IMG/VR virus record: IMGVR_UViG_3300037418_002962
Span: 26,650 to 90,649 of that record
DNA from: a virus
Taxonomy: Duplodnaviria; Heunggongvirae; Uroviricota; Caudoviricetes
Length of the DNA stretch: 64,000 nt
Reading direction: 5' to 3' (one strand)
Translations under genes and position numbers: made by a program
Shown here: positions 2,789 through 39,517 of the stretch, one piece after another
Position numbering within the stretch: position 1 is the first letter of the stretch
Layout: each line of letters starts with the position of its first letter
Notes under the pieces: model-generated
Database searches by the model: none
The model's input: only the letters and a program-made list of their open reading frames with translations
Told to the model about the DNA's origin: nothing

Positions 2789-2994
2789 TGGATTCATTTT
2801 ATGAAGACAGGAAATATAGAATTAGAGAAGTAAATAATAAAATTGAAAGTCATTATAAGCTAGAAAAATTGTTTGTATGTATTTGGTGGCCTATACATAC
2901 GAGTAAATATCTATATAGATGCGAAGAAGCATTGCGAAATGTTACTAAAAAACCTAGAATTATTTATTATGATGAAAATGGAGAAGAATTATAA
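2788..2994 (+). CDS. Hypothetical protein
   Basis: TAATG overlap with the upstream gene. Confidence 0.6.
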   Translation: MDSFYEDRKYRIREVNNKIESHYKLEKLFVCIWWPIHTSKYLYRCEEALRNVTKKPRIIYYDENGEEL

Positions 2995-2997
2995 ATA
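2990..2997 (+). promoter_or_regulatory. T4-type late promoter TATAAATA upstream of the NAD salvage genes
   Basis: Exact TATAAATA 60 nt before the NAMPT start. Confidence 0.6.
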
Positions 2998-3057
2998 AAG
3001 GGAAGCGTTAACCTGGGAAGTCCAAACCAACGCATATAAAGAAAAGGAGAAGTTCCT

Positions 3058-4473
3058 ATGAAGATTAATCCGCTATTAAATTGCGATACCTATAAGTACA
3101 GTCATTTTCTACAATACCCTCCAAAAACTCAATACGTTTACAGTTATATTGAATCCCGTGGTGGTCAATATCCAGCTTCATTGTTCTTTGGTTTACAGGC
3201 ATTTATTAAAGAATACCTTTCAGTTCCTGTTACCAAGAAGGATGTAAAGGTTGCTGCATCTAGGGCCAAGGCCAGAAATATTCCATTCAATCTTGACGGA
3301 TTTAATAGGCTAGTCGATTTTCATAAGGGATTCTGGCCCGTAAAGATTAGGGCAGTTCCTGAAGGTAGCCTGATTCCTGTTAGCAATCTTCTTGTTGATA
3401 TCATCAATACAGATCCAGAAATGCCATGGGTAACATCTTTTCTAGAAACAGCCCTTTTGCGCGCTATCTGGTACCCTACAACTGTTGCTACTCGTGAATT
3501 TTACCTAAAGAAAACCATTAAGCAGTTTCTTGAAGAAACTGCAGATGAGTCTGCACTTGGTCTTCTTAATTATAAGCTCAATGATTTTGGTGCTCGTGGA
3601 GCTTCTTCAGCAGAAACTACAATGCTTGGTGGAATGGCCCATCTCGTTTGTTTCAATGGCACAGATAATGATTTGGCTATCAATGGTCTGGTAGATTATT
3701 ATAATCTTGATGAAGAAACAGAACTAGGCCAGTTCCTTGGAGTTCCAGCAGCAGAACATAGTACAATGACTTCATGGAATGGTAAGGCTGGTGAATTACG
3801 TTCAATGAATAATATGCTAGACCAATTTGCCAAGCCAGGAGCAATTCTTGCTTGTGTTTCAGATAGTTATGATATCTGGAATGCAGTTGACAATTATTGG
3901 GGTAGAGAACTCCTTGATAAGGTCAGGAATAGTGGAGCACTTGTAGTTGTCAGGCCAGATTCTGGTGATCCTGCTGAAGTTTCCTCGGAAGTTGTTGCAC
4001 GTCTAGGAGAAAAGACAGGATTTACGACCAATAGTAAAGGCTTCAAGGTCCTTCCTCCTTATTATAGGGTTATCCAAGGAGATGGTTGTGATGAGAATTC
4101 AATTCCCCATATTCTCCAGACATTCAAGAATAATGGTCTAAGTACCGAAAATATCGTATTCGGTATGGGTGGAGCGATGCTACAGAAGCTGGACCGTGAT
4201 ACAATGAAATGGGCCATGAAATGTTCAGCCATTGAGGTTGGTGGAGTTCTTAAGGAAGTCTATAAAGATCCGATTACAGATAAGGGAAAGAGATCCAAGA
4301 GAGGCAAGCTCAACCTGATTTATAATCCAGATAGTAAGCAATATCATACAACAAATGAAAATCGTTGGATGGACAATGAAGTAAACGTTATGGAAAATGT
4401 TTACTCTAATGGAAAGCTCTTGAAGGACACTTCATTCTCTGAAATTCGTGAAAGAGTAGAGGGGAATCTATAA
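3058..4473 (+). CDS. nadV: Nicotinamide phosphoribosyltransferase (NAMPT)
   Basis: Motifs DTYKYSH, YSYIESRGG, DFGARG, PAAEHS, VSDSYD, VVRPDSGDP, RVIQGDG. Confidence 0.95.
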   Translation: MKINPLLNCDTYKYSHFLQYPPKTQYVYSYIESRGGQYPASLFFGLQAFIKEYLSVPVTKKDVKVAASRAKARNIPFNLDGFNRLVDFHKGFWPVKIRAVPEGSLIPVSNLLVDIINTDPEMPWVTSFLETALLRAIWYPTTVATREFYLKKTIKQFLEETADESALGLLNYKLNDFGARGASSAETTMLGGMAHLVCFNGTDNDLAINGLVDYYNLDEETELGQFLGVPAAEHSTMTSWNGKAGELRSMNNMLDQFAKPGAILACVSDSYDIWNAVDNYWGRELLDKVRNSGALVVVRPDSGDPAEVSSEVVARLGEKTGFTTNSKGFKVLPPYYRVIQGDGCDENSIPHILQTFKNNGLSTENIVFGMGGAMLQKLDRDTMKWAMKCSAIEVGGVLKEVYKDPITDKGKRSKRGKLNLIYNPDSKQYHTTNENRWMDNEVNVMENVYSNGKLLKDTSFSEIRERVEGNL

Positions 4474-33181: not shown

Positions 33182-33226
33182 TATTATAATTTTCCTTTAA
33201 TAATTATATTTAATATTTATGAGAAT

Positions 33227-33619
33227 TTATAATCTTCCAAATATTAAATCGATCCCGCTTAGTAATTTTTTGGAAAGATTCCAGTAAGGAATTTGCCCGG
33301 TGCTATATTGGAAAGTTGAAGTTTTATTAAATTCTACCAGGACTGTTGACCCAGAATTTACAGTAATCTGAATATTATTTGAAGAAAAATCTGTAAATGC
33401 TACTTCTTGTAGGTCTATCGGAAGATTAGTTTGAAAAATTAAGTTTCCACCCCTGGATATACTTGCCCCTCCAGAGGTTAATATTTTTGTAATCGAAGCT
33501 CCAGTGACAGCTTCGATATAGTTATTAGTAGAATATCCTAGATCAGCAACATTAAAAGTTGTATTCGAGGTTGTTCTGAAGGTACATCTACCTTTTGGAG
33601 CGTTCTTGACGATTGGCAT
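33227..33619 (-). CDS. Hypothetical (probable structural) protein
   Basis: AAGGA RBS; first gene of the late minus-strand block. Confidence 0.55.
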   Translation of the reverse strand: MPIVKNAPKGRCTFRTTSNTTFNVADLGYSTNNYIEAVTGASITKILTSGGASISRGGNLIFQTNLPIDLQEVAFTDFSSNNIQITVNSGSTVLVEFNKTSTFQYSTGQIPYWNLSKKLLSGIDLIFGRL

Positions 33620-33677
33620 AAAATTCCTTTAATAATTGTGTATATTATTTATAAAAAAATTTTAATGTGTTTGGAGC

Positions 33678-33708
33678 TTGACAAAGGTTCTAAAAGTGGC
33701 TATAAATA
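33678..33708 (+). promoter_or_regulatory. Composite sigma70 / T4-late promoter
   Basis: TTGACA-N17-TATAAA, with the -10 forming TATAAATA. Confidence 0.65.
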
Positions 33709-33825
33709 TTTTTGTATGCGGGTATAGCATAAAATTAATGCACTTCCCTTCCAAGGAAGACAACTCGGGGAAGTACCGAGTATCCGCTCCATTAATTATT
33801 TCAATGACTTACAAGGTTTATATCA

Positions 33826-33989
33826 TGATTTACAGCAACTATGACGAAATGCTTAAAGCAACTCTTAAGGGGCTTAGAATCTCTCCTGAAGATTGGGGTA
33901 AGATCCTAGATGTTGTGCATAAGATGCAGAAGGAAGCCTATAAGAATGGCTTTGATAAGGGTTGGGAAGAAGCAACCCTTTTGGACTAA
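33826..33989 (+). CDS. Small hypothetical protein (start moved from 33678)
   Basis: The track's TTG start is the -35 box; ATG at 33826. Confidence 0.55.
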
Positions 33990-34146
33990 AAGGAATTAGT
34001 CATGTTTCATGTTGTTGTAATTCAGGATAACCTTTATCCAAAGGTTTATGATTTCCATTCCTATGATGCTGCCTTCAGCTATTTTACCCATATGGTAAAA
34101 AGGGATTATTATGTTTGTCTCCTGGATAAGGATAATAAGATACTAA

Positions 34147-34359
34147 ATGCAACTCCATAAAAAATTTCATAAGGAACTCTGGGAAGTTCTGGAGGATAAG
34201 ATTCCTCTTAACTGTATATTTCCAAGATATAAACAGGCGAAGTATGGTTGGGGACTTGACTTACCAAATTATAAGTGGTATTTGTCTCCTTTTCCAATTC
34301 GGAAGAATCTTATGGTAAGATATTCTGGTGGAATCAATTTTAGGAAGGTAAACGAATGA
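34147..34359 (+). CDS. Hypothetical protein
   Basis: Packed ORF; start uncertain. Confidence 0.45.
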   Translation: MQLHKKFHKELWEVLEDKIPLNCIFPRYKQAKYGWGLDLPNYKWYLSPFPIRKNLMVRYSGGINFRKVNE

Positions 34360-34571
34360 AATTCTGGAAGCAAATTATTAATTTCAATCAGAAATATTGG
34401 AATATGCCTTTTGGGATTTCCCTAGGAATTCTGCAATTTTTTCTTGCTCCTGTTTTGCTTAATCTAATCTTTTATGTAATTTCAGGAATTTGGTGGTTGC
34501 TTGACTATTGGTCAGCATTCGTATTAATGATTTTTCCAATGTGTCTAATAACATGGGCAAAGATAAGTTAA
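34356..34571 (+). CDS. Small membrane protein
   Basis: Hydrophobic helices. Confidence 0.6.
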   Translation: MKFWKQIINFNQKYWNMPFGISLGILQFFLAPVLLNLIFYVISGIWWLLDYWSAFVLMIFPMCLITWAKIS

Positions 34572-34582
34572 AGGAGAGAAAA

Positions 34583-34750
34583 ATGGAACCAGCTTTTATA
34601 ATTTTTCTAGGATTTGTTGTTCTTGTTTTTGCTATAACAGCAAATTTTATTATCTCAGATACAATACAGAAATTTATTTTTCATGCATTTTTTCTATTTG
34701 CAGGAATTCTATCTGTAGTTCTTATGGTCTTTGGCACTCATTTGAAATAA
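34583..34750 (+). CDS. Small membrane protein
   Basis: AAGGAG RBS; two hydrophobic segments. Confidence 0.6.
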   Translation: MEPAFIIFLGFVVLVFAITANFIISDTIQKFIFHAFFLFAGILSVVLMVFGTHLK

Positions 34751-34941
34751 TGTTTAAGACTAAGAGAGTTGAGATTCCTCCTTACTATGATCTCTGGATG
34801 CAAGGTGCAAGAATGGGAACAGTAAGGAAAGAATTTACTGGAGATGATGGAGTTCGTTATTATAAGGTAAATATGGACCATCCACAAGTCAAAAGGCTTG
34901 CAACGGTTATTGCAGAAGACTGTGTAGAAAGGAATTATTAA
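34750..34941 (+). CDS. Hypothetical protein
   Basis: TAATG overlap; PPYYDLWMQGARMG. Confidence 0.65.
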   Translation: MFKTKRVEIPPYYDLWMQGARMGTVRKEFTGDDGVRYYKVNMDHPQVKRLATVIAEDCVERNY

Positions 34942-35157
34942 ATGATGAAATGGATTATCGTTTATCCTTGTGGTAATCGAAACAAGATTGCCATTGCTCA
35001 AGCTTATCCTTATGAAGTTTCTGAATATGCCCTTGCTTCACGTCAAAGTTTTTATAGTGAAAAAGAAGCTGCAGAATATGCAATAGAACTTGCAGAAACC
35101 CATGGCAAGATTTGCGAAATCAACGGACAATATAAAGTCCATGATTATTTGGATTAA
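34942..35157 (+). CDS. Hypothetical protein
   Basis: Packed ORF. Confidence 0.6.
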   Translation: MMKWIIVYPCGNRNKIAIAQAYPYEVSEYALASRQSFYSEKEAAEYAIELAETHGKICEINGQYKVHDYLD

Positions 35158-35522
35158 TGGAAAGGAATTATATAATGAAGAAAATTATTTTAGGAATTTC
35201 ACTTGGGATGGCATTAATTTTTGCCTCTTCTGTCCATGCCATTACAATGGAACAGGTAACAGAGGCACAAGATTTGATGAAGGATATTAAAGATAAGAAA
35301 GCAAAACTAGATATTTTGAAAAAAGATTGTAAGAATAAAATTGCAATTATAATACCTCTTTCTTATTATAATTCTGATTGTTGTGTAAATTACATTCAGA
35401 GAAATAATAATTCAGAGCAAAGCATTTATGAAACTATTGATTCAAAGGTTATAATCGACAATCTACAAAAAGAAATTGATGAAGATGTCAAGAAGCTTAA
35501 CAAGATTGGAGTTACACCATAA
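35157..35522 (+). CDS. Putative exported protein
   Basis: MKKIILGISLGMALIFASSVHA signal peptide. Confidence 0.6.
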   Translation: MERNYIMKKIILGISLGMALIFASSVHAITMEQVTEAQDLMKDIKDKKAKLDILKKDCKNKIAIIIPLSYYNSDCCVNYIQRNNNSEQSIYETIDSKVIIDNLQKEIDEDVKKLNKIGVTP

Positions 35523-35523
35523 A

Positions 35524-35754
35524 ATGAAAGTATATATCGTTTCAATCTGGAACTGCTATCACGATTTGACTGATGATCGCACAAAGGTTTTTGAGAGTCT
35601 TAAGGATGCAAAGGCTTATGGCGAAAAGGTTGCCAAACAAGAAGGCATTGAAGAGACCGATTCTGTAGTTTGGGAAAAGAAGGAAGATAAAAGGGAAACT
35701 TGGTATTATGGTCATGATGATGGAATTTATGTCACAGAATTTTATGTGAACTAA
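35524..35754 (+). CDS. Hypothetical protein
   Basis: MKVYIV...KVFESLKDAK. Confidence 0.65.
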   Translation: MKVYIVSIWNCYHDLTDDRTKVFESLKDAKAYGEKVAKQEGIEETDSVVWEKKEDKRETWYYGHDDGIYVTEFYVN

Positions 35755-36051
35755 ATGTCTGAATATCATGTTCAGCTTCCCGATAATTTCGTTCCTATCA
35801 AATATCCAGGATACTATTGGGATATTGAGGGTAAGAAGCTTTATTCATTGAAGACTTTCGGTTGTCTGAAGGCTCTTACCCATCAACCTGCAAGACGTTT
35901 CCATTTTAGAAATTCTTTTGGTAAGATGGAATATATGGAAAGATTAGCAGGATATTCCATTTCTCATCATGGAAAGAGACATGTGGTTTCAGATATGTAT
36001 CTGGCTCGTTTAGGATCATTGAAAGAAAATTATACAATCGAAATGGTTTAG
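35755..36051 (+). CDS. Hypothetical phage protein
   Basis: YPGYYWD..KLYSLK. Confidence 0.6.
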   Translation: MSEYHVQLPDNFVPIKYPGYYWDIEGKKLYSLKTFGCLKALTHQPARRFHFRNSFGKMEYMERLAGYSISHHGKRHVVSDMYLARLGSLKENYTIEMV

Positions 36052-36140
36052 GTTGGTATAGGGAAGTGGTTGAACTCATGGGACTGCAAATCCCATTGCT
36101 GAAAGGCACATCGCGAGTTCGAATCTTGCTGCCAACTCCA
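36052..36140 (+). tRNA. tRNA-Cys(GCA) with a class II long variable arm
   Basis: Acceptor GTTGGTA/TGCCAAC + U73 + CCA; TGGGA-CTGCAAA-TCCCA; variable TGCT-GAAA-GGCA; T arm GCGAG-TTCGAAT-CTTGC. Confidence 0.9.
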
Positions 36141-36158
36141 AATTTTTTGAAATAGATA

Positions 36159-36187
36159 TTGACATATAAATAATCTTTTGTTATATT
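36159..36187 (+). promoter_or_regulatory. Composite promoter for the putative ncRNA
   Basis: TTGACA-N17-TATATT with TATAAATA (36165-36172) in the spacer. Confidence 0.75.
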
Positions 36188-36194
36188 GGTTTTG

Positions 36195-36733
36195 TTAGCT
36201 CTCCTGAATTGACAGGGTGAAATGTAGACGGATTGAACAGTGCAGGATAATTATTAGTCCACTGGTATTATTCTCTGGTCGAATGATGGCTGTTTGGAAA
36301 GTCTTTGACGGATTTGGATATAAATCTAGTAGGCATGGTAGGTGGTCAACCCATCCTAGGCAATATATTCATAGGGCATTGGTCAGTTTAAAGACCGGAA
36401 CAAACTTTTCCTAGTTTAGTAAAACTAGGTGGCGGGAATGGTGAGGTTTGTGAGAGATACTGTCTTTTACTTAATAGTTGGATCTTTGCAACTATAGCTT
36501 AGAAGAAAACTAGCTACGCCCCCAATTGTCTCATAAACCCCAAGCTAAAACTTGGGTGGAGATTCGCTCAGAAATGAGTATAGGTGGAAGAAATTCGCGA
36601 CCTATCTTAATTTTACCTCAGGCCACGAAAAGTAGCCAGAGAGTCACCGGAATGTATAAATGTTCGTGGGTGGCAAAATCCTGGAAAAGAACTCGGAAGC
36701 GTGGTTAAATAATTTCCAAGTTCTTTTCCAGAT
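36195..36733 (+). ncRNA. Candidate large structured non-coding RNA
   Basis: Approx. 540 nt without a credible gene; many hairpins and long-range helices; own promoter; next to a tRNA. Confidence 0.6.
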
Positions 36734-36746
36734 GAATTTCTAAATT

Positions 36747-36995
36747 ATGGAGATGGTTATGTTTAAACCAATGTATAACGAACCGTATGAAGTTATGTTA
36801 GAAGATGCTGATATTGATTTTTCAGCAGCACATAGAACTATTCGTAACTTGGTCAAAGAACTTGCCGAAAAAGGATATCCTTTGAATGGAATTGAACTAG
36901 CCCTTTATAATACTATTTCATATGAATGCTCTAGCTATAAACTTCAAAGAAATTTTGAAATTCATAAAGAACAAAAAGGACTGAAGAAGGAATAA
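36747..36995 (+). CDS. Hypothetical protein
   Basis: ORF after the ncRNA candidate; start may be 36759. Confidence 0.6.
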   Translation: MEMVMFKPMYNEPYEVMLEDADIDFSAAHRTIRNLVKELAEKGYPLNGIELALYNTISYECSSYKLQRNFEIHKEQKGLKKE

Positions 36996-36996
36996 A

Positions 36997-37311
36997 ATGG
37001 ATAATATAGCAAGAGAAGGTGAATATACTTATGAAAAATTTCCCATTCAGATAACCTATAATACTGTAGCTCTTTTAAGTCTGTTTACATTGAATAATGG
37101 AAATTTTTCAGATCTGGAAGACTGTTGGGTTTGGCATTATGATGATCCAAGAGAAATGGCAAAATCTGCAGCAAAACAGTTTATTGATCGTCTAGAAAAA
37201 CACTATAATGTAGTTTTTCTAATTGCTTTAAGGAATGCAATTACTGATAGGCTTAAAAAGGATGATGAACAATTCGGAACTAATCATGCTAATAAAGATG
37301 AAATTATATAA
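36997..37311 (+). CDS. Hypothetical protein
   Basis: AAGGA RBS. Confidence 0.65.
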   Translation: MDNIAREGEYTYEKFPIQITYNTVALLSLFTLNNGNFSDLEDCWVWHYDDPREMAKSAAKQFIDRLEKHYNVVFLIALRNAITDRLKKDDEQFGTNHANKDEII

Positions 37312-37316
37312 TTAAA

Positions 37317-37502
37317 ATGGTAATTTTTCTCCTTATTGTAATCTACATTATGATAGCTTGCTTTCATGCGGGTTGTTTTAGAAATTCTATAAAATATGAT
37401 GCAGACTTATTTGTTTATTCTGTATTCTGGCCTTTACATTTGATTTGGCTTTACTTTAAAGTTATATTTTATTCCGGAAAGTTTTTTGCTGATTTTTTCT
37501 AA
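37317..37502 (+). CDS. Small membrane protein
   Basis: Hydrophobic; FWP motif. Confidence 0.55.
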   Translation: MVIFLLIVIYIMIACFHAGCFRNSIKYDADLFVYSVFWPLHLIWLYFKVIFYSGKFFADFF

Positions 37503-39517
37503 GCTAATTCTACAATAACGCTTGATGGCATAGAGCTTGAAGGCAATCCTCCTGTATAGCCAATTGCTCTTGGTCCACCTGAAGAGCCTCCCCCACCAGC
37601 CACAACATTATTAACAGTCTGTGGAGCAATAATAATATTACTTTTATTGGCCTGAGTCTCTGATTGTTTTAGTAGTTTAACTCCAGAACCATCTAAAGCT
37701 GATGTTGATTTGACATTCATTGGATTAAATGGTTCTCCTTCGGTCTGGCTAACATTATTATCGGAATCATTAAGTTTCTGAATAAATTTCTTTTGACCAC
37801 TTCTAAGTGGTGTTGCATCTGCTGTTGGAGATGATGTTGGAGATGATGTTTTACCTTTCGGAAACGGAATTGCATCTGACTGATATTTTTCCTGATTAGA
37901 TCTAAATGCCTGTGAAATTCCTCTCTGGATTTGCTCATCAGTTACTCTTCCTTTGCCAACTTCTACATGAGTTATGGCATCAAGAAGCTGGAACATTACA
38001 TTTCTGTCATGGATATCAATTTTATCATCAGGAGAAACACCTAACTTCTTAGATACCTGCCTGATATACTCTGATGTATTATTATGATCGCTTTCTGGTG
38101 CCCATTTAGTTATGATTCCTCTAACTGTATTGATTCCTCTTGAAGAATATATTTCAATTTGATGGGCAGCCGCTGCAATTCCGTCTTCCATATTTTTAAA
38201 TACAGCAAATCTACCGTCTATTCCAGATTCTTTAGTGGCTCCATTTTGATTAGCAAAATTAAGGTTAGTTGGATTGTTATTTCTAATTCCCCTTGGATCA
38301 CTGGAACTATGAAGATCTACACCATTGTTATTAATGATATTTTGATTAAATTTCTTTTGACCTTCAGTAAGATTTCCAATTGATCCTGGATCAGAACCAC
38401 CAAATCTTTTTACTTGGTCAGCATTATATTTGTCTCTATGACTTGCCTCCAGATCAGCCAAATCCTTATCTGTAACATCTGTTGATCTACTAAATCCACG
38501 CTCTTCTCCTGGTTTAGCATCTCTGTTACCCCAAGTCTCTAAAATACTATCAATTTTATCTGTTAATGTTTTGTCTCGTTGGTTATTAATTCCTAATTTA
38601 TTTTCTACTTTATCTATAATTTTAGTAGTTGCATCTGACAACCATATACCAAGTTTTTCTGGTAAATCCTTATATAATTCTGGAAAAGCTCTACGAATAA
38701 TGTCTGCAGCAACTATTCCGAGGCCCATTTTTCCTAAAAATCCAAGTTTTTCCTTACCTGACATGTCAGAGAAGAAATTCCCATGAGAATTATGGTCTTC
38801 TGGATTGAAATTTTCGTCTTTGTTATTTTCGTTTTCTAGCTCTTCTTCATTAGAGTTTCTTTCTTCTCTTCTGACTGCATCCGCTTCCGCTTTTTGTTCT
38901 GCTGCTTCCTGTCTATTTGATAAATTTGTAACAATATTGATGATTTCTTGAATATCAGTATTAACTTCATCAAGTTTATCTTTAATCATAAATGCAGAAT
39001 TTTTTACTGCATCGGTATTTCTGTTAATTGCCTCTACAATAGAACTTGTTTCTTTTCCAGAATTTTGCTCAAATCTTTTAAATTGTTCTCCAAGATGAGA
39101 AATTTCCCTAAAGATTCTGAAAACCCTTTGTTCAGTATCGTTATCATTATCTGAAGTTGAGGATGAGGATGATTGGTTCTGTCTTTTTTCTTTTTGAGCA
39201 TTAATATGATTAATCATTTCATCTGACCAGCCACCAGGATTTCCGGTAGCAGTAGAGTTTTCATTATTTTTTGATTGTTCTCTATTAAGTTTTTCTTTTA
39301 GAGTTGAAGAAGCATTCGAGTAGTCGATATCATTAGGACTCCAGGTAGGTTTCTTTTTGTCTTTTATTTTTTTACCAATTTTGCCTAAAGCAGATCCTGC
39401 ACTTTCTGCTTCGAACCCAGCTTCTTCACCAGCCTTCACTAGTCCAGCACCAAGTTCTTCAACACCTGCTGCCAATCCTTCTCCGATTTCTGCTAGACCT
39501 TCCGCTATAAATGCCAT
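37499..39517 (-). CDS. Tape-measure/hub-like protein with a lysozyme-like domain
   Basis: Coiled-coil N-half; RGIRNNNPTN...IITKWAP..NNTSEY domain; downstream of gp26/gp51. Confidence 0.55.
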   Translation of the reverse strand: MAFIAEGLAEIGEGLAAGVEELGAGLVKAGEEAGFEAESAGSALGKIGKKIKDKKKPTWSPNDIDYSNASSTLKEKLNREQSKNNENSTATGNPGGWSDEMINHINAQKEKRQNQSSSSSTSDNDNDTEQRVFRIFREISHLGEQFKRFEQNSGKETSSIVEAINRNTDAVKNSAFMIKDKLDEVNTDIQEIINIVTNLSNRQEAAEQKAEADAVRREERNSNEEELENENNKDENFNPEDHNSHGNFFSDMSGKEKLGFLGKMGLGIVAADIIRRAFPELYKDLPEKLGIWLSDATTKIIDKVENKLGINNQRDKTLTDKIDSILETWGNRDAKPGEERGFSRSTDVTDKDLADLEASHRDKYNADQVKRFGGSDPGSIGNLTEGQKKFNQNIINNNGVDLHSSSDPRGIRNNNPTNLNFANQNGATKESGIDGRFAVFKNMEDGIAAAAHQIEIYSSRGINTVRGIITKWAPESDHNNTSEYIRQVSKKLGVSPDDKIDIHDRNVMFQLLDAITHVEVGKGRVTDEQIQRGISQAFRSNQEKYQSDAIPFPKGKTSSPTSSPTADATPLRSGQKKFIQKLNDSDNNVSQTEGEPFNPMNVKSTSALDGSGVKLLKQSETQANKSNIIIAPQTVNNVVAGGGGSSGGPRAIGYTGGLPSSSMPSSVIVELA

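Follow-up and report, generated by a model that had tools for sequence, protein, structure and literature searches.

A candidate non-coding RNA gene beside a phage tRNA gene carries a wcaG-type hairpin module

The DNA analyzed here, called the window below, is a 64,000-nucleotide stretch comprising bases 26650–90649 of a 243,684-bp phage contig from IMG/VR, which is AT-rich (34% GC) and estimated to be ~97% complete. At positions 36159–36733 of the window, just downstream of a transfer RNA (tRNA) gene, a reading of the sequence alone had proposed a large structured RNA of about 540 nt belonging to the GOLLD or ROOL class or to a new one. We judge it somewhat probable that this stretch is a real promoter-driven phage non-coding RNA gene built around a wcaG-type hairpin (Table 1). 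A non-coding RNA gene beside the tRNA gene is supported by a promoter, the lack of a credible open reading frame (ORF), GC enrichment, the hairpin, and contigs from two RNA libraries, whereas the assignment of this gene to GOLLD or ROOL did not hold. The candidate is not a member of the GOLLD, ROOL, or wcaG families, and nothing shows it to be a transfer-messenger RNA (tmRNA).

Results

An early-type promoter precedes a gene-free, GC-enriched stretch

The sigma70-type promoter TTGACA-N17-TATATT named in the sequence-only reading is indeed present and would be expected to start transcription near position 36194, 50 nt beyond the end of the tRNA gene. The strict pattern TTGAC(A/T)-N15–18-TAWWWT has 26 matches in the genome when both strands are counted, most of them reading TTGACA(T), and by its sequence the promoter at 36159–36187 is of the phage's own early type. 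The T4 late-promoter motif TATAAATA, which had also been reported, was found as well. Because 18 of the 45 TATAAATA sites in the genome precede an ORF by no more than 60 nt, T4-type late promoters probably function in this phage. The copy at 36165–36172, which stands 574 nt from the next ORF, is putative only.

The claim that no credible gene follows the promoter was borne out. Every one of the six frames of the interval 36141–36746 has 9 to 22 stop codons, and together with the tRNA gene the interval forms the longest gap in the whole 243,684 bp without an ORF of at least 70 aa. When scored against the phage's own codon usage, the small ORFs of the stretch reached only −0.03 to −0.22, whereas five of six flanking small genes scored 0.18–0.29 (a hydrophobic ORF of 61 aa scored −0.09). 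An internal ORF of 65 aa was not called by the gene caller behind a collection of 5.8 billion proteins and is absent from that collection; the neighboring proteins of 98 and 104 aa are included in it, where they have no relatives. The GC content of the stretch is 0.40–0.44, compared with about 0.32–0.34 for its flanks.

Table 1. Features of the candidate RNA gene and its immediate surroundings (window coordinates).
Feature	Position	Strand	Basis and remarks
tRNA-Cys(GCA) with long variable arm	36052–36140	+	ARAGORN; Rfam tRNA 51.5 bits; neighbor, outside the candidate RNA
Sigma70-type promoter TTGACA-N17-TATATT with TG extension	36159–36187	+	11/12 matches; best site in 35500–37500
T4 late-promoter motif TATAAATA	36165–36172	+	Sequence; within the spacer of the early promoter
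Part under contigs of two metatranscriptome libraries	36203–36520		Contigs 36217–36520 and 36203–36398; contigs give no strand
Predicted core RNA	36215–36524	+	Minimum free energy and centroid fold; overall z −0.7; inferred without covariation support
wcaG-type hairpin: UUUC, 7-bp stem CCUAGUU/AACUAGG, then GUGGCGGG	36403–36436	+	BLAST, covariance model R1, Rfam
Second, weaker look-alike hairpin CCCAAG/CUUGGG, then GUGGAG	36537–36566	+	Direct repeat D4 with the 36403–36436 module
Terminal hairpin, 13 perfect bp, or 18 bp with one mismatch	36681–36731	+	Immediately precedes the next gene's ribosome-binding site; sliding-window z about −5
First downstream ORF, 82 aa	36747–36995	+	Codon score 0.257, typical of phage genes; real start probably 36753 or 36759

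A wcaG-type hairpin module lies at the center of the candidate

Comparisons at the level of sequence and base pairing showed that the center of the candidate carries a module of a phage-specific hairpin family that builds wcaG RNAs and also occurs in some tmRNAs. The wcaG hairpins follow a common design in which GUUUC precedes a 7-bp stem, the loop ends in AAA(G/A), and GUGGYG comes after the stem. In a BLAST search of whole records of related phages, nucleotides 36403–36435 matched G010:8921–8953, from a related T4-like phage, at 29 of 33 positions (E 6.9e-6), with identical stems and a different loop. Eighteen nucleotides downstream of the G010 hairpin is a true wcaG RNA (70.3 bits), which is followed by a terminator and then by a gene.

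Compensatory changes occur in five of the seven pairs of 42 wcaG hairpins, from which the CTAGTT stem was excluded, yielding 71 double-change cells compared with 19 ± 6 in shuffles. Note that the script required pairing, and therefore the 100% pairing of this set arises by construction, whereas the double changes do not. Covariance model R1, built from these 42 hairpins, gave its top match in the 64-kb window at 36407–36436 (16.5 bits, E 0.0055), and the other 180 kb of the genome yielded no match. The Rfam wcaG model itself scored 17 bits over 36371–36443 against a cut-off of 42, with E values of 0.52 for a search of 261 nt and 0.117 for the genome. The central wcaG hairpin, UGGUGCGGAUGGG-loop-CCCGCC, is not found in the candidate: the cmscan alignment has just 3 nt in place of the 24 positions at the center of the model, and inspection by eye yielded only a loose resemblance to the core (GUGGCGGGAAUGG ... 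CGCCCCC, 80 nt apart). The R1 match and the missing core therefore indicate that the candidate holds one genuine wcaG-type module but not the core. Model R1 did not detect the hairpin at 36537–36566, so its likeness to the module is a resemblance only.

Hairpins of the type found in the candidate (UUUCCUAGUU-loop-AACUAGGUGG) are present in at least 119 viral contigs (L132–L211 of IMG/VR; for example, L129:1501–1533) and in one prokaryotic contig among 185,579 genomes. Among the matches listed, which represent 68 distinct contexts, 46 are joined to a wcaG core (42 precede it and 4 form the third wcaG hairpin), 3 are located inside one-piece phage tmRNAs, and 12 have nothing else nearby. Mostly, the hairpin forms an unannotated extra element that precedes a wcaG RNA by 20–60 nt, and it often overlaps the stop codon of a gene for a small membrane protein; this placement suggests, as far as sequence can tell, that the natural wcaG RNA is longer than the Rfam model. 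In the one-piece phage tmRNAs (L134:1090–1533, L187:2565–2995, and L189:1286–1634), the same hairpin followed by GGUGGUGG occupies the pseudoknot region after the tag frame. The hairpin is an unexpected module common to tmRNA and a riboswitch candidate, and its presence in three contexts (before wcaG RNAs, inside tmRNAs, and at gene ends) suggests a common partner.

Contigs from two RNA libraries cover the 5′ part of the stretch

Contigs from two rhizosphere metatranscriptome libraries, each from a different study, cover part of the candidate. Such contigs serve as presence data and carry no strand, end, or level information. In one of them (X3), 15 adaptor letters stand directly before position 36217. 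We read these letters as read-1 read-through, which would fit a plus-strand 5′ end if the library were of the dUTP type, an interpretation that hinges on this one contig and on the library type. The contigs of both RNA runs include none on 34500–36200, on 36521–38500, or on the 3′ domain, and uncovered parts are not evidence. Because the runs were chosen with the stretch and the uncovered parts are uninformative, this absence was not used to argue for a discrete or enriched RNA. Likewise, the small shares found in the runs were not used as evidence of habitat.

Only the terminal hairpin stands out from shuffled sequences

All the helices and hairpins listed in the sequence-only reading exist where it placed them. 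However, the ornate fold that they were taken to form is mostly at chance level, with only the 13-bp terminal hairpin rising above shuffles. Helices of at least 9 bp number 13, compared with 8.9 ± 3.1 in dinucleotide shuffles, and those of at least 11 bp number 2, compared with 0.9. Given these counts, the 9-bp long-range helix (36271–36279/36635–36643) and the 7-bp "pseudoknot" previously offered as evidence of structure are ordinary, their frequency matching that of shuffles. Because a 13-bp helix forms somewhere in 10% of shuffles, only the local hairpin at 36681–36731 stands out.

Folding energies gave a similar division. Relative to shuffles, the z value for 36195–36545 is −0.17 on the plus strand and −0.04 on the minus strand, whereas that for 36521–36745 is −6.1. 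Sliding windows revealed a strong signal on the terminal hairpin that is equal on the minus strand, as well as a moderate plus-strand signal over 36520–36680 (z −2.3 to −2.6). The ornate picture is therefore unsupported by the single sequence. The terminal hairpin could be a terminator-like or processing element, although the terminator scan does not call it because it lacks a U-run.

When the predicted core RNA is folded alone, nucleotides 36215–36219 pair with 36517–36521 (5 bp) beside a 3′ hairpin at ~36494–36516, leaving the CCA at 36522–36524 unpaired. The predicted ends of this RNA fall within 2–4 nt of the ends of the RNA-library contigs. Two other features noticed during inspection were set aside. 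A recurring GGUGG motif (five copies, with TAGGTGG occurring three times) is no more frequent than composition allows, and the RNase P-like motifs GGAAAGUC and AGGGUGAAA, spotted by eye, are in the wrong order and match no model.

Searches for known RNA families and for homologues

Infernal searches with 4227 families of Rfam 15 recovered only tRNAs, whether in the window or elsewhere in the genome. Lowering the threshold from the gathering score to E ≤ 10 in cmscan, with either 1 kb or 261 nt as the query, yielded no match to GOLLD, ROOL, tmRNA, RNase P, an intron, or a riboswitch, the best hit being that to wcaG at 17 bits. Because no Rfam family matches, the candidate is not GOLLD or ROOL.

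No full-length homologue of the candidate was found in any collection searched. There was no match by blastn in 50,697 phage records, no homologue in IMG/VR searches with the flanking proteins of 98, 82, and 672 aa, no occurrence of a two-block pattern of the candidate in prokaryote genomes, and no paralogue elsewhere in the phage genome. By alignment of the baseplate-hub protein, 80 relatives with 33–48% identity were recovered, and none of these hub relatives has a candidate-like sequence within 10 kb of the hub gene. The nhmmer and BLAST targets were 82 hub-relative loci and 10 whole relative records. Short matches in G003, G005, and G007 lie within protein-coding sequence and were rejected as chance, and those in G004 are 14-nt exact matches with an E value of 0.37. 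A paired-module pattern matched once in viral contigs, but this match was false (a repeat protein).

A model for the candidate and its competitors

In the interpretation that we favor, host RNA polymerase would start at the early-type sigma70 promoter and transcribe ~540 nt without a credible frame, up to the hairpin at 36681–36731 just ahead of the next gene. The RNA that accumulates would be the 5′ two thirds of this transcript, roughly 36215–36524, whose 5′ and 3′ ends may pair to leave a CCA tail. The module and its G-rich GGUGG flanks might then serve, early in infection, as a platform bound by a protein, a ligand, or a second RNA. This action would resemble that of wcaG-type RNAs. If the partner of the candidate is found, it could explain the wcaG family too.

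Several observations weigh against a stand-alone RNA gene. Without a full-length homologue, covariation is limited to one hairpin module, and this 30-nt, 16.5-bit module is a small share of 550 nt. Furthermore, the hairpin is located at ordinary gene 3′ ends in 18 of the 68 contexts among the matches listed, and therefore the module alone is no proof of a stand-alone RNA. The 5′ 350 nt fold like shuffles (z about 0), the terminal helix with its CCA is just 5 bp and was spotted post hoc, and the sole variant, T>G at 36325, would disrupt a predicted pair. In addition, the RNA runs were chosen because they hold the stretch, and an RNA library can contain DNA. The finding at present is one orphan sequence with limited structural support.

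One competing explanation, which we regard as unlikely but still deserving of some weight, is that the stretch serves in cis as a leader (riboswitch-like or an attenuator) of the early genes at 36747–37502, wherein the wcaG-type element would sense and the 36681–36731 hairpin would serve as the expression platform. This explanation accords with the classification of wcaG RNAs as cis-regulatory riboswitch candidates (PMC2864571) and with the order of wcaG RNA, terminator, and gene in G010. Moreover, the promoter scan found no promoter between the candidate RNA and the next ORF, and the predicted outer helix of the 3′ domain (~36557–36565/36735–36743) ends just upstream of the likely ribosome-binding site. 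However, a leader of 555 nt would be exceptional for a compact genome, the canonical wcaG core is absent and the Rfam score is far below its cut-off, and the hairpin that would act as the platform has no U-run. Downstream lie small orphan genes that have no relation to those usually accompanying wcaG RNAs, which are polysaccharide or high-light genes.

It is quite unlikely that the stretch is transcribed filler, meaning a remnant that lost genes or the shuffling of mobile cassettes left behind within a hyperplastic early region, which might include one or more tiny translated ORFs and in which the hairpin would be a leftover inter-gene element. The absence of excess folding energy in the 5′ part would be expected of such a remnant, as would a surrounding block of small orphan genes that is common to no relative. 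The hairpin can also be found alone or at ORF ends (12 and 18 of the listed contexts, respectively), and one ORF of 19 aa (36438–36497) has a good start, AGGTGG-N5-ATG. Nevertheless, the GC content is raised rather than decayed toward the genome mean, a consensus promoter has been retained before 555 nt with nothing to express, no frame exhibits gene-like codon usage, and contigs from RNA libraries cover the stretch.

Relatives carry a two-piece tmRNA in a comparable place

Genes for a two-piece (permuted, alpha-type) tmRNA are present in 10 of the 39 hub relatives with enough flanking sequence, including most of the closest relatives. They are located 5.4–7.7 kb past the hub gene; nine of the ten run on the strand opposite to it, and that of L044 is on the same strand as the hub gene. 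The carriers are L003 (17336–17682, minus strand), L043, L044, L045, L052, L055, L058, L061, L065, and L068, and their tags include ANDELFLAAA, ANDSEYALAA, and ANDNAPIAMALAA. The Rfam alpha_tmRNA model scores 111 bits on L003, which ARAGORN missed together with L052 and L068. No tmRNA was found in the present phage (97% complete), and the candidate lies 3 kb past its hub gene and on the strand opposite to it, in what amounts to a comparable stable-RNA island. Beyond the hub and its upstream neighbor, the phage genes tested near the candidate, including that for the 672-aa protein between the hub and the RNA, have no counterpart in the relatives. Because the flanking genes are not conserved, the synteny is loose.

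Direct tests for a tmRNA were negative. Models RF00023, RF01849, and RF04321 do not match the candidate, ARAGORN reported no tmRNA in it at the default and 90% thresholds, and nhmmer with a profile of the relatives' tmRNAs found nothing in it. A call made by ARAGORN at the 80% threshold was rejected, as it borrows the T-arm of the tRNA-Cys and has its tag listed as "not identified." The ordered-motif score against tmRNA is 28.9, below the shuffle mean of 35.4 ± 5.7, and pairwise scores against the hairpin-bearing tmRNAs outside the module have z values between −1 and +1. There is no T-loop in 36190–36746, and the predicted terminal helix, although followed by the CCA, has a G-C pair at position 3 rather than G3-U70. 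Frames after GCA codons read AIYS* and ALVSLKTGTNFS*, and none is a tag frame ending in nonpolar residues. The Rfam, ARAGORN, hidden Markov model (HMM), and three permutation tests thus all spoke against tmRNA homology.

There is a slim chance that the candidate descends from the relatives' tmRNA and has strongly diverged or decayed. Its location, comparable to that of the gene in the relatives that have it, the absence of a tmRNA from this phage, the occurrence of the same hairpin module inside one-piece phage tmRNAs, and the tRNA-like-domain topology of the predicted terminal helix, 3′ hairpin, and CCA would all fit such a descent. Opposing it are the lack of any family match at E ≤ 10 (261 nt), the negative HMM search, an ARAGORN call obtained only through the neighboring T-arm, a motif score below that of shuffles with no likeness outside the module, the missing T-loop, G3-U70 pair, and nonpolar-ending tag frame, and the loose synteny.

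A more speculative model, and a doubtful one in our estimation, is that the candidate represents a new class of ~310-nt stable phage RNA (36215–36524) with a tRNA-like minihelix ending in CCA and a wcaG-type hairpin in its body, which would have replaced the two-piece tmRNA that sister phages keep in the same stable-RNA island. If this is true, an RNA that mimics a tRNA end would target the host machinery for translation or tRNA processing, or else anti-phage systems that monitor this machinery.

Membership in GOLLD or ROOL has hardly any probability: the length of ~540 nt comes close to the ROOL average of 581 nt and a place beside a phage tRNA gene is typical of both classes (PMC5737381), but there is no covariance-model match at E ≤ 10, helices are no more abundant than expected by chance, and folding energy gives no signal in the 5′ part.

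Neighboring genes and tRNAs

The candidate is part of a block of small plus-strand ORFs (33200–37500) that also contains two tRNA genes. The genes around the stretch are all on the same strand, and tail-lysozyme-type and baseplate-hub genes adjoin it. The reported adjacency to a tRNA gene was confirmed by the tRNA-Cys gene at 36052–36140, directly upstream. Another tRNA gene, the third, at 33718–33788 was recognized by Rfam (42.2 bits) and was not reported by ARAGORN, and the anticodon loop of the tRNA at 1052–1146, which carries a 17-nt insertion, was unreadable to ARAGORN.

The long-arm tRNA-Cys(GCA) occurs outside this phage as well. When viral and metagenome contigs were scanned with a pattern comprising the anticodon arm and T-arm separated by a 16–28-nt spacer, matches came from 16 other contigs (2 viral and 14 metagenome; L004, L005, and L026–L039) with 31–68% GC, in which the tRNA-Cys usually lies within phage tRNA arrays. 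These 16 loci have the tRNA alone in common; the candidate RNA follows it in none of them, and the downstream sequence differs. The arrangement of a tRNA followed by TTGACA also exists in L004 and L015. In L015:4546–4679, a tRNA-His is followed by a TTGACATATAG promoter and then by a tRNA-like gene, which ARAGORN reads as tRNA-Val only if a 56-nt insertion in the anticodon loop is allowed. In L004, a 177-kb phage contig, positions 2800–3745 between tRNA-Cys and tRNA-Asp are gene-free and hold at least four GC-rich units of about 100–150 nt, each enclosed by a 17-nt word repeated in inverted orientation (GTGTATTTCAATATGGT / ACCATATTGAAGTACAT).

The 82-aa ORF downstream of the candidate has only two distant relatives in a representative library. 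One of these is borne by L015, the one for which DNA was fetched, where the context is different. Elsewhere in the genome, GC-rich gaps are mostly occupied by short ORFs and have no likeness to the candidate. Another promoter-led, GC-rich (0.40) stretch of 500 nt is present at G000:C1:26414–26914 (window positions −235 to 265), where TTGACA-N-TATAAT is followed by a short ORF with an in-frame TAG, ~180 nt free of ORFs, and then an ORF at 266–1042.

Comparison with known systems

Large phages carry unexplained, highly expressed RNAs beside their tRNA genes (RNAC and RNAD of T4, lnc001 and lnc002 of phage K, GOLLD, and ROOL), and to our knowledge none of these has a known function. The locus described here adds a soil example that is linked by a covarying hairpin module to the wcaG riboswitch candidates and to phage tmRNAs.

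The candidate resembles GOLLD and ROOL RNAs in length class and in its position beside a phage tRNA gene, the location typical of these classes. However, it does not match their models and has no evidence of multiple junctions or pseudoknots above chance. With the wcaG RNAs (RF01761), known from T4-like cyanophages and marine metagenomes, it shares the UUUC flank, a 6–7-bp stem, and the GUGGCG flank. In contrast to these RNAs, the candidate has neither the central UGGUGCGGAUGGG...CCCGCC hairpin nor a second canonical module, is 3 to 5 times longer, and comes from a soil or rhizosphere phage in which it is not beside polysaccharide or high-light genes. The two-piece tmRNA of T4-like relatives is similar to the candidate in its island beyond the hub gene on the opposite strand, its size, its promoter, and its ends, which in the candidate are predicted to pair and to leave CCA. 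The candidate differs from it by having no T-arm, G3-U70 pair, tag frame, covariance-model or HMM match, or excess motif similarity.

T4 RNAC and RNAD are roughly 120–140 nt in length and are processed from tRNA transcripts. The candidate is likewise located in a tRNA region but is larger and has its own promoter; homology to the T4 RNAs was judged only by the absence of a phage BLAST match. RNAC and RNAD have been described as stable RNAs of the tRNA region whose role is unassigned (PMC3014915, PMC9697503).

The RNAs lnc001 and lnc002 of phage K, a Kayvirus, are reported to be abundant long non-coding RNAs beside tRNA genes (PMC9241854). They resemble the candidate in being gene-free regions (600–1150 nt) at the side of tRNA genes in a large myovirus, with their own early promoter and a hairpin before the next gene. 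They have no sequence similarity to the candidate, and their abundance was measured by stranded RNA sequencing, whereas the candidate is known from RNA-library contigs only. We also observed that the 3′ end of lnc001 (L040:633–769; NC_005880 13632–13768, minus strand) resembles DUF3800-I RNA (43.4 bits against a cut-off of 44.2, E 1.9e-4), a likeness that the candidate does not have and that is not mentioned in the consulted passages of the phage K paper. Grouping the candidate with these RNAs would express a functional resemblance rather than homology, drawn by analogy of position and promoter for phage K lnc001 and lnc002 and of position for T4 RNAC and RNAD.

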